This document shows positions 3,471 through 5,212 of a stretch of DNA of 37,100 nt, piece after piece; within the stretch, counting starts at the first letter, position 1; the number at the start of each line of letters is the position of its first letter. This DNA comes from a virus (lineage: Duplodnaviria > Heunggongvirae > Uroviricota > Caudoviricetes). The DNA lies in IMG/VR virus record IMGVR_UViG_2718218139_000003; one strand, written 5' to 3'. A program made the position numbers and the translations under genes. Below the pieces are notes generated by a model that saw nothing but the letters and a program-made list of their open reading frames with translations, was not told the DNA's origin and searched no databases.

Positions 3471-3529
3471 CTGGCCTTCGGGTATTTGAGGTGTACTGGC
3501 AATAGCGGACACTACCATTTGTTCTTTTT

Positions 3530-4348
3530 TTAAGCAGCCATCTGATGATATTTTTCCCTGAAGGCTGCCGGGGAGATATTCCCCAGACGAGAGTGACGAC
3601 GCTGACGATTGTAGAAAATCTCAATGTATTCCCGTATTACTGAGATGGCTTCATCCCGGTTATTAAAACGATAGTGGCTCAGGCTCTCATTTTTCAGCGT
3701 TCCCCAGAAGCTTTCCATCGGAGCGTTGTCGTAACAGTTACCTTTACGCGACATTGATGTTTTCAGACCAAACTGCTCCTGTATGACCCGGTAATCGTAT
3801 GCGCAGTACTGTGAACCTCGATCAGAGTGGTGGATTAGCCCGGCAGGTGGGCGCTGGCTCCTGAGCGCCATAAACAGGGCTTTACCTGTCAGCTCTTTTG
3901 TCATGCGCTCTCCCATGGCGTAGCCGACAATTTCGCACGTATAAACATCTTTGATGCCAGCGAGGTACAACCATCCCTCCTGTGTGGCAACATACGTCAG
4001 GTCCGCCACCCAGACCTGATTTGGTGCTGTAGGAGCGAACGTCTGGTTCAGCAGATTTGGCGCAACTGGCAGATTGTGGTTCGAGTTCGTAGTCGCTCTG
4101 AACTTGCGTTTCTGCTTACAGCGTAGCCTTAGCTCCTTACGAAGACGTGCCAGTCGGTCACGACCAACGATGATGCCATTCTCTGCCAGCTCCGTCTGGA
4201 GCCGCCGGGTTCCATATGTTTCGCGAGTGCGGATATGTGCCACCTTAATCTCCAGTTTTAGCCGCTCATCACTTTGTTTTCTGTCTGAGGGTTCATGCTG
4301 TACCCAGTTGTAATAACCGCTCCTGGATACACCAAATACCTGACACAT
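3530..4348 (-). CDS. IS600-like transposase OrfB (DDE catalytic part; expressed as OrfAB by -1 frameshift)
   Basis: 272 aa ORF matching the copy at 28671-29489; integrase-core-like sequence. Confidence 0.8.
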   Translation of the reverse strand: MCQVFGVSRSGYYNWVQHEPSDRKQSDERLKLEIKVAHIRTRETYGTRRLQTELAENGIIVGRDRLARLRKELRLRCKQKRKFRATTNSNHNLPVAPNLLNQTFAPTAPNQVWVADLTYVATQEGWLYLAGIKDVYTCEIVGYAMGERMTKELTGKALFMALRSQRPPAGLIHHSDRGSQYCAYDYRVIQEQFGLKTSMSRKGNCYDNAPMESFWGTLKNESLSHYRFNNRDEAISVIREYIEIFYNRQRRHSRLGNISPAAFREKYHQMAA

Positions 4349-4383
4349 CGCTTCAATGGGAAATTGTTGTCGCCATTGTTCGA

Positions 4384-4686
4384 TTAACGCGTATTTTTCA
4401 GCGACTCCTGTGCAAAATACGCTGTTGCTTTTTTTAATATATCTCGCTCAAGGCGAGCTTCATTTAACGCCTTACGCAGTTGCAGAATTTCAGATTCCAG
4501 TTCAGCCACCGTGCGGGAACCAGGAGTACCGAGCCCTTTTCTGGCGGCGGTAACCCATTGTCCTAAAGTGCCTTCAGGAAGAGATAATCGGGAAGCGCCT
4601 TCACTGATCGAAAGTTGATTTTCAAGAACCGTTCTGACAGCTTCGGCTTTGAACTCTTTAGAGTAACGTTGGGTTTTTCTGCTCAT
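4384..4686 (-). CDS. IS600-like transposase OrfA (HTH DNA-binding part); A AAA AAA slippery site at 4429-4435
   Basis: 100 aa MSRKTQRYSKEFKAEAVRTV..., matches the copy at 28333-28635. Confidence 0.8.
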   Translation of the reverse strand: MSRKTQRYSKEFKAEAVRTVLENQLSISEGASRLSLPEGTLGQWVTAARKGLGTPGSRTVAELESEILQLRKALNEARLERDILKKATAYFAQESLKNTR

Positions 4687-4750
4687 TATTAGCTCCTTCT
4701 GATGCCATTCTATTTCAGGAAGGAGTGTCCGTTAAACTCAGGCTACCTCA

Positions 4751-5212
4751 GTGTTCTGGTCGTTGCAGGCCGAAGACAGCGATGCCAACAGCCTCAACAA
4801 CAAAGAAATCACGACCATTATTCGTCGCAACGGGTTCCGCTTCTGGGGCAACCGCACACCGGAAACGAACGCCTACATCTTTGAGGTGTATACCCGAACC
4901 GCACAGGTGCTGGCTGATTCAATTGCGGAAGCGCAGTTTGAAACCATCGACAGTCCACTGACACCTGCGAACGTGAAGGATGTTATCAGCGCCATCAGGG
5001 CAAAACTGGATTCGCTGGTTACTGCCGGGAAACTGATTGGTGCGGAGTGCTGGTATGACGTGGTGGATAACGGCACCACGAATTTACGTCAGGGACGTGT
5101 GCGTATTCGCTACAAATATACGCCTGTTCCCCCGCTGGAAGACATGGAACTTTACCAGACGTTTACTGATGAATTCTTTGGTCCCGCATTTGCGGTGCTG
5201 GGAGGTGCCTGA
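4751..5212 (+). pseudogene. FI: Tail sheath protein (P2 gpFI-like), C-terminal about 153 codons only; 5' part replaced by the IS600 end
   Basis: Frame is open right from the IS boundary; followed by FII/E/T/U in P2 order. Confidence 0.7.

Follow-up and report, generated by a model that had tools for sequence, protein, structure and literature searches.

The left of two IS600 copies in a 37,100-nucleotide stretch of DNA (IMG/VR virus record IMGVR_UViG_2718218139_000003; the whole stretch is referred to below as the window) marks an insertion sequence (IS)-anchored internal deletion of approximately 2.4 kb in a defective prophage of the P88-like, Xuanwuvirus type of the P2 family. We assign this reading a probability of roughly 93%. 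The IS element is intact; the sequences on its two sides are non-adjacent but co-linear in relatives of the prophage; and the DNA that lies between them in those relatives is absent. Everything from a point 72 nt past the stop codon of ogr through codon 241 of the tail sheath gene FI has been replaced in the window by one complete IS600, across which the hok toxin locus now faces the middle of FI.

The left IS600 copy occupies positions 3487-4750 on the minus strand, with its right inverted repeat (IRR) end facing hok and its left inverted repeat (IRL) end facing FI. Read directly from the sequence, it runs from TGAGGTGTACTGG at 3487 to GGCTACCTCA at 4750, a span of 1264 bp, which is the length given for IS600 in Table S3 of PMC5567499. 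Its termini (TGAGGTG... and ...CCTCA) are the imperfect terminal inverted repeats of IS600, starting with TG and ending with CA, and they enclose the two open reading frames (ORFs) expected of the element: orfA (4384-4686, minus strand), encoding 100 amino acids with a helix-turn-helix domain (PF01527 HTH_Tnp_1), and orfB (3530-4348, minus strand), encoding 272 amino acids with the DDE integrase-type catalytic domain (PF00665 rve, PF13276, PF13683, PF13333). A T7/A7 run at 4429-4435 fits the programmed frameshift that is annotated for such elements: the left copy is 99.9% identical to one in a related prophage (locus L002) that RefSeq lists as 'IS3-like element IS600 family transposase, programmed frameshift'. 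A repeat search of the window finds it 100% identical to the second, inverted copy at 28269-29532.

A 3-bp target duplication is the normal product of IS600 insertion. The left copy has none: its flanks, ATT (3484-3486) on the hok side and GTG (4751-4753; codon 242 of FI, in frame) on the FI side, differ at all three positions. An earlier note, made from the sequence alone, had described an IS600 at 3484-4753 with these flanks and without a target duplication; re-reading of the ends shows its coordinates and flanks to be exact, and a renewed look for the 3-4 bp duplication that might have been overlooked turned up nothing. The missing duplication is a real anomaly, because the right copy is flanked by GTG/GTG and the L002 copy by TCC/TCC, and a match between 3-bp flanks is expected by chance only once in 64 cases. 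It has to do with what happened to the flanks and casts no doubt on which element this is: the duplication is missing because a flank was deleted. The triplet beside the IRL end of the left copy, GTG, is also the one duplicated at the right copy, and in IS-free references both GTGs are native to their sites; the sharing is probably due to chance (1 in 64) or to a mild target preference. Further IS600 flanks that have been observed are TCC, CAG and ATT.

What the two flanks once adjoined can be read from E. coli strain 8479, whose reference locus (L001) holds the same prophage at the same site without the IS and shares 98-99% identity with the window near the junction. The native order there is methyltransferase-com-hok-ogr-D on the minus strand and then, switching to the plus strand, FI-FII-E-T-U. 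The hok-ogr-D | FI order is also that of most among ten additional loci with an identical Hok, at several chromosomal integration sites; because this order recurs in relatives, hok is a native gene of the prophage family and ogr is its native neighbor. The comparison with related genomes that the earlier note had proposed, directed at the native neighbor of hok and at the 5' half of FI, yields an answer: ogr adjoins hok, and FI lies intact on the far side of D. Aligned by blast, the window flanks end at L001 4843 on the left and resume at 7209 on the right, in the same orientation, with a gap of 2,365 bp. The ATT maps to L001 4841-4843, where the reference goes on with CCCTCC, and has no duplicate across the IS; the GTG maps to L001 7209-7211, where it is preceded by GGCAT. 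The missing DNA comprises the ogr-hok spacer (72 nt), ogr, the late-gene activator (261 nt), a spacer between ogr and D (42 nt), D (1110 nt), the divergent D/FI intergenic control region (157 nt) and codons 1-241 of FI (723 nt, 61% of the gene). This map upholds the proposition that the two flanks once occupied different places and that an IS-mediated rearrangement rather than a simple insertion brought them together. In intact relatives 2,365 bp separate them, within a single prophage and with order and orientation unchanged, so they do not stem from distant loci. Two other readings of the gene order were tried and rejected. The FI-FII-E-T-U block was taken to be inverted relative to canonical P2 order, but annotated relatives show its orientation to be native to P88-like prophages; and an ORF at 9737-10342, considered as a truncated D, corresponds in annotated relatives to a serine acetyltransferase cargo gene.

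The FI-side joint falls, as the earlier note had it, in the middle of FI, at codon 242 of 394. The remnant (4751-5212, plus strand; codons 242-394, that is, 153 codons) retains only PF17482 (Phage_sheath_1C) and has neither a promoter nor the N-terminal domains; its full-length homologues, of 394 amino acids, carry PF22671, PF04984 and PF17482. It is best annotated as a pseudogene. The tail tube gene FII (5212-5724, plus strand; PF04985 Phage_tube) is intact and now lacks the upstream FI promoter region. Exact-protein matches to the 153-residue remnant at three loci (L007, L010 and L011) were considered as further instances of the same junction and discarded: their FI genes are frameshifted or cut off at a contig end, and the called ORF happens to open at the same internal FI GTG. 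A protein look-up with a 94-residue ORF that runs across the hok-side junction returned no record.

With more than 50 IS600 copies in the lineage, and repeats being the usual cause of mis-joins, the junction might be suspected of being an assembly artefact, as the earlier note had allowed. That reading is refuted, its residual chance being negligible. The window lies within a 5.2-Mb contig (PVMG01000001.1, of GCA_003015325.1), and the identical structure or junction (100%) is found in three other National Center for Biotechnology Information (NCBI) assemblies, one of them a closed genome from another laboratory: GCA_013416625.1 and the closed genome CP014670.1 match the whole hok-IS600-FI' arrangement with 100% identity, and the FI-side junction is present in GCA_002486255.1. 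At precisely the two junctions, short-read contigs from many independent runs break off 26-98 nt into the IS. On the FI side these are short-read (Logan) contigs of at least 13 runs, which stop 28 nt inside the element; on the hok side the junction is found in GCA_029943175.1 (and 16 similar places) and in SRR35759322; their contigs break off 98 and 26 nt into it, respectively. Neither junction is found in any complete RefSeq E. coli genome of the collection (5,426 complete genomes). CP014670.1 is enterohemorrhagic E. coli (EHEC) O145:H25 strain CFSAN004177, whose published description counts 53-54 chromosomal IS600 copies and enters this prophage as a P88-like element of 34.3 kb (PMC5567499). 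Both junctions are exact lineage-specific markers that could serve for typing. The host gene yfcJ at the left edge of the window (1-822), encoding a major facilitator superfamily transporter, offers another: an in-frame internal deletion of 357 bp near 665/666, leaving 273 amino acids compared with 392, has edges with 2-3 nt of microhomology and no IS, and is common to at least 24 contigs of the lineage.

The right IS600 copy (28269-29532, plus strand), which is inverted relative to the left one, is a simple insertion in the replication endonuclease gene A. Its GTG target duplication stands at 28266-28268 and 29533-29535, and its flanks overlap by exactly these 3 bp on the IS-free reference L004 (4780-4782). 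The 5' part of gene A (29533-31648, minus strand; PF05840 Phage_GPA) comprises ~705 codons; the 3' part (27559-28268, minus strand) aligns by blast with L004 4114-4782, within the replication endonuclease coding sequence at 4073-6895. The reference gene A encodes 940 amino acids, and the element splits it after codon 705. The right copy is an independent inactivating hit on the same prophage.

The existence of two 100% identical, inverted IS600 copies 23.5 kb apart, one of them without a target duplication, is also what homologous recombination between them might be expected to generate: the 23.5-kb segment would be flipped, and each copy would retain one flank from each original insertion. 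Such an inversion predicts, however, that both copies lack duplications and that their flanks match cross-copy as reverse complements, whereas the right copy has a perfect GTG/GTG. It also conflicts with the order and orientation of the inter-copy segment, which are the same as in strains 8479 and 10153. When the whole window is compared by blast with the strain 8479 prophage, as reconstructed, every matching segment between yfcJ and int is +/+ and keeps its place in the order, and strain 10153 matches both ends of the window on one strand. Because the window is collinear with strain 8479 and the right copy keeps its own duplication, inversion between the IS600 copies is excluded, or has at most a vanishing residual probability. 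The earlier note had left the choice between a deletion and an inversion involving another copy; the deletion stands, with 2,365 bp gone, and the inversion falls. An IS600-flanked composite transposon was likewise rejected as a description of the segment: its outer flanks, ATT (3484-3486) and GTG (29533-29535), differ, and the inner segment is native prophage in native order.

A sister genome provides a second view of the same IS. GCA_003015365.1 (locus L024) is 100% identical to the window over positions 1-4750, including the ATT|IS600 junction, and then diverges: at PVZZ01000002.1 9487-10760 the IRL end is joined to what corresponds to window position 36470, in the middle of int, and 31,719 bp are gone, nearly the whole prophage together with the second IS600. 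The joint itself has no more than 1 nt of shared homology; a 4-nt microhomology that appeared there at first proved to be a blast edge effect containing a mismatch. All six neighborhoods with the lineage-specific yfcJ allele share the hok-side junction. The hok-side junction is constant and the IRL side exists in at least two states; these are therefore nested deletions anchored on one end of the IS, and the L024 structure supports a fixed hok-side junction with a variable IRL side. The 31.7-kb deletion shows stepwise erosion of the prophage from one IS end.

How was the 2.4-kb deletion made? Both joints are exact to the IS600 termini, and there is no microhomology at the FI joint. To judge from the sequence, an exact joint of this kind fits the action of transposase or IS-IS recombination, not end-joining. 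In the most likely order of events, IS600 would first have inserted at ATT in the ogr-hok spacer, making the hok-side junction the older, fixed one; DNA to the right of the IRL end would then have been lost. In a two-step version of that loss, a second IS600 in the same orientation would have landed in FI at GTG, and homologous recombination between the direct copies would have followed, leaving one IS with one flank from each insertion. For a copy-out-paste-in element of the IS3 family in a genome with more than 50 copies, we favor this two-step route, giving it an even chance. Intramolecular strand transfer in a single step, in which transposase would join the IRL end directly to the GTG target, is entertained more tentatively; the one-step and two-step routes leave the same sequence product.

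Two elaborations of a single-step mechanism bear on the same joint. Flank deletion aided by the IS-excision enhancer (IEE) is known for IS3-family elements (PMC9397093), and the lineage that carries the window belongs to EHEC. The chemistry of IEE uses microhomologies, though, of which the FI junction has none, and the IS terminus has been kept to the base. Moreover, iee is itself disrupted by IS600 in the two sequenced O145:H25 strains (PMC5567499), although the deletion could predate inactivation of iee. Because iee is disrupted in the lineage and microhomology is lacking, we regard participation of IEE in the left deletion as improbable. It is also conceivable, but quite unlikely, that the IRL end of the left IS600 is a recurrent one-ended deletion generator and that the deletions of the window (2.4 kb) and of L024 (31.7 kb) are independent or successive products of direct intramolecular strand transfer, catalyzed by transposase. 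If true, that would constitute a natural-isolate record of one-step adjacent deletion by a copy-out-paste-in IS3-family element with IEE already inactive. On the same reading, the first deletion may have been favored for a double effect: with ogr, D and the sheath gene removed the prophage would be locked in place, and hok would be disarmed.

The order of events can also be run in mirror image. IS600 would then have inserted first in FI, at codon 242 with a GTG/GTG duplication, and deletion would have proceeded leftward from the IRR end through the 5' part of FI, D and ogr to ATT. The final sequence is equally compatible with this order, and GTG is also the target triplet of the other IS600 copy in the prophage, which could hint at a target preference. 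The GTG coincidence has a 1 in 64 chance of arising at random, however, and the flanks TCC, CAG and ATT show no preference for GTG. L024 keeps the ATT|IRR joint and differs on the IRL side, so that the mirror order would need deletions from both IS ends in one lineage, and the hok-side junction is common to all six neighborhoods with the lineage-specific yfcJ allele. The mirror order is accordingly judged unlikely, and insertion at ATT followed by loss of DNA to the right of the IRL end remains the preferred sequence of events.

Several points weigh against this account as a whole. Neither of the two possible single-insertion intermediates was found among the 5,426 complete E. coli genomes: not the ATT-site intermediate (an ATT duplication with intact ogr-D-FI), and not the FI-site intermediate (IS600 in FI with GTG/GTG). 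The queries were synthetic junctions representing these two intermediates together with the real hok-side junction, and none of the 5,426 genomes covered a junction. The ATT-site intermediate also gave 0 matches in one exact-pattern scan of a metagenome collection, and the FI-site intermediate gave 0 matches in one exact-pattern scan of species-representative genomes. Because no intermediate was found, the event order and the choice between one and two steps remain inferred. The L024 deletion, for its part, could equally descend from a window-like ancestor, whichever IS end is the original one. Finally, the statements on hok in the next paragraph draw on an Rfam match that does not reach the gathering score of its family and on a promoter deduced from conservation.

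The deletion reaches into the control region of hok. The hok ORF (3227-3367, minus strand) is intact and encodes a Hok/Gef-family toxin of 46 amino acids (PF01848 HOK_GEF). Upstream of it, a 119-nt remnant of the mRNA leader with the sok/mok region (3368-3486, minus strand) persists without the promoter and approximately the first 28 nt of the transcript. On the intact reference, the Rfam sok model RF01794 matches L001 4871-4713 from end to end with 47.4 bits (E 1.5e-9), below its gathering score of 59; in the window the score drops to 20.8 bits, and the model's 5' helix has to be placed in IS sequence. Alignment (A1) with eight reference loci, one of which has an unrelated upstream context, places the start of the window's homology at AATACCCG, 28 nt into the transcript and downstream of the conserved -35, -10 and +1 elements. 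These elements (-35 TTGCCG, a spacing of 17 nt, -10 TAGATT and +1 GGGTGCC, as conserved in the eight reference loci) all lie in DNA that is deleted from the window. A complete hok leader, with its 5' element, sok target region and own promoter, is thus not present. A sigma-70 promoter scan found no promoter at the hok/IS junction of the window, nor in the reference hok upstream region, and TTGCCA in the IRR end of IS600 does not yield a convincing hybrid promoter. The locus keeps its ORF and sok region but has probably lost both its own promoter and the 5' element for translational activation. The co-oriented IS600 transposase genes point toward hok, and read-through from them is conceivable; unless it occurs, hok is probably silent.

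Outward from the IS, the left side of the window continues through the hok leader remnant and hok to com, a DNA methyltransferase gene and the host genes flk and yfcJ. The com-like gene (2780-2977, minus strand) encodes a zinc-ribbon regulator (PF10122 Zn_ribbon_Com) that is annotated in L001 as a Com family regulator. The methyltransferase gene (2044-2835, minus strand; PF01555 N6_N4_Mtase), whose homologue in L001 is annotated as DNA-methyltransferase, is the first gene of the prophage and adjoins host flk. The exact Hok protein is found in 2752 collection blocks, always in a prophage context and adjoining ogr or com. On the right, after the FI remnant, come FII, E, the gene for the tape measure, U and the remaining P2-type virion module.

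The prophage is inserted between flk and pdxB. Its tail block has 94-98% nucleotide identity to P88, Xuanwuvirus P884B11 and Citrobacter phage Shae_phiSM, and its set of Pfam domains (Phage_portal, Terminase, GPO, cap_P2, sheath, tube, GpE, GpU, baseplate J/W/V, Phage_GPA, Cox and integrase) comprises P2-type structural and replication genes in family order, with the integrase at one end, as in P88-like members of the P2 family. Unlike P88 and the Xuanwuvirus phages, it has no ogr, D or 5' part of FI, and both gene A, interrupted by IS600, and the tail fiber gene are split. Because ogr, D and the sheath gene are lost and gene A is knocked out, the prophage probably can neither replicate nor make tails. 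The prophage, which the literature lists as a P88-like element in EHEC O145:H25, is defective on at least three independent counts, and the finding matters mostly as correct annotation.

Other features of the prophage were recorded along the way. The tail fiber gene (10964-13101, minus strand) is present as two ORFs, 10964-12205 and 12364-13101, corresponding to a single gene of 710 amino acids in relatives; comparison with strain 8479 shows five gap openings in this region, which represent either real decay or homopolymer error of a long-read assembly. The adjacent tail fiber assembly gene (10386-10964) contains a full-length match to the Rfam RNA IS009 (192 bits; 10423-10621, minus strand), which probably reflects conserved coding sequence rather than an RNA gene of its own. 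A serine O-acetyltransferase cargo gene (9770-10342, plus strand), conserved in related prophages, lies between gpU and the tail fiber assembly gene. In the early region, matches to C4 antisense RNA (82.8 bits) and isrK (65.5 bits) stand side by side at 32380-32577 (minus strand), both above the Rfam gathering scores: this is an immunity RNA module of the P1/P7 type, here inside a P2-family prophage. The related prophage at L002 (NZ_CP037945.1, 7001-9407) resides at a tRNA-Leu site in another E. coli strain and has its TCC/TCC-flanked IS600 in an ogr-D cargo region, with pseudogene fragments on the flanks. It therefore appears that cargo and IS elements insert recurrently in the ogr-D interval.

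Set beside known systems, the left IS600 and its surroundings are largely familiar. In E. coli K-12, IS elements sit downstream of hok; unlike these, the lesion described here takes the promoter and the 5' end of the leader. The resemblance to the K-12 hok loci consists in an intact hok ORF with an IS-associated rearrangement at the edge of the regulatory RNA region; the differences are that the present hok is a prophage gene and that its inactivation is predicted from sequence. As far as the findings of Pedersen & Gerdes 1999 are relayed in PMC2654758, the chromosomal hok/sok loci of K-12 have been inactivated by insertion sequences, point mutations or rearrangements. The element itself is like the IS600 of EHEC O145:H25 and Shigella in its 1264-bp length, orfA/orfB organization, programmed frameshift, TG...CA ends and abundance of more than 50 copies in the lineage (PMC5567499). 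Unlike ordinary IS600 insertions, which have a 3-bp duplication, the left copy has none.

The closest parallel to the deletion is found in the Lenski long-term evolution lines of E. coli, in which IS150, likewise of the IS3 family, reportedly deletes the rbs operon by a second insertion followed by IS-IS recombination (Cooper et al. 2001, J Bacteriol). As in those deletions, one endpoint coincides exactly with a terminus of a resident intact IS, the other varies among relatives (FI codon 242 in the window, int in L024), and the surviving IS has no target duplication. The target is different, being a prophage instead of a metabolic operon, and no two-copy intermediate has been recovered here, the two-step route being the one that we favor by inference. 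IS-driven gene loss is well documented (PMC7373316). The left IS600 is an instance of ordinary prophage decay in an IS600-rich pathogenic E. coli lineage, which opens no new biological question: it is a real, textbook case of deletion by an IS, of a kind already known.

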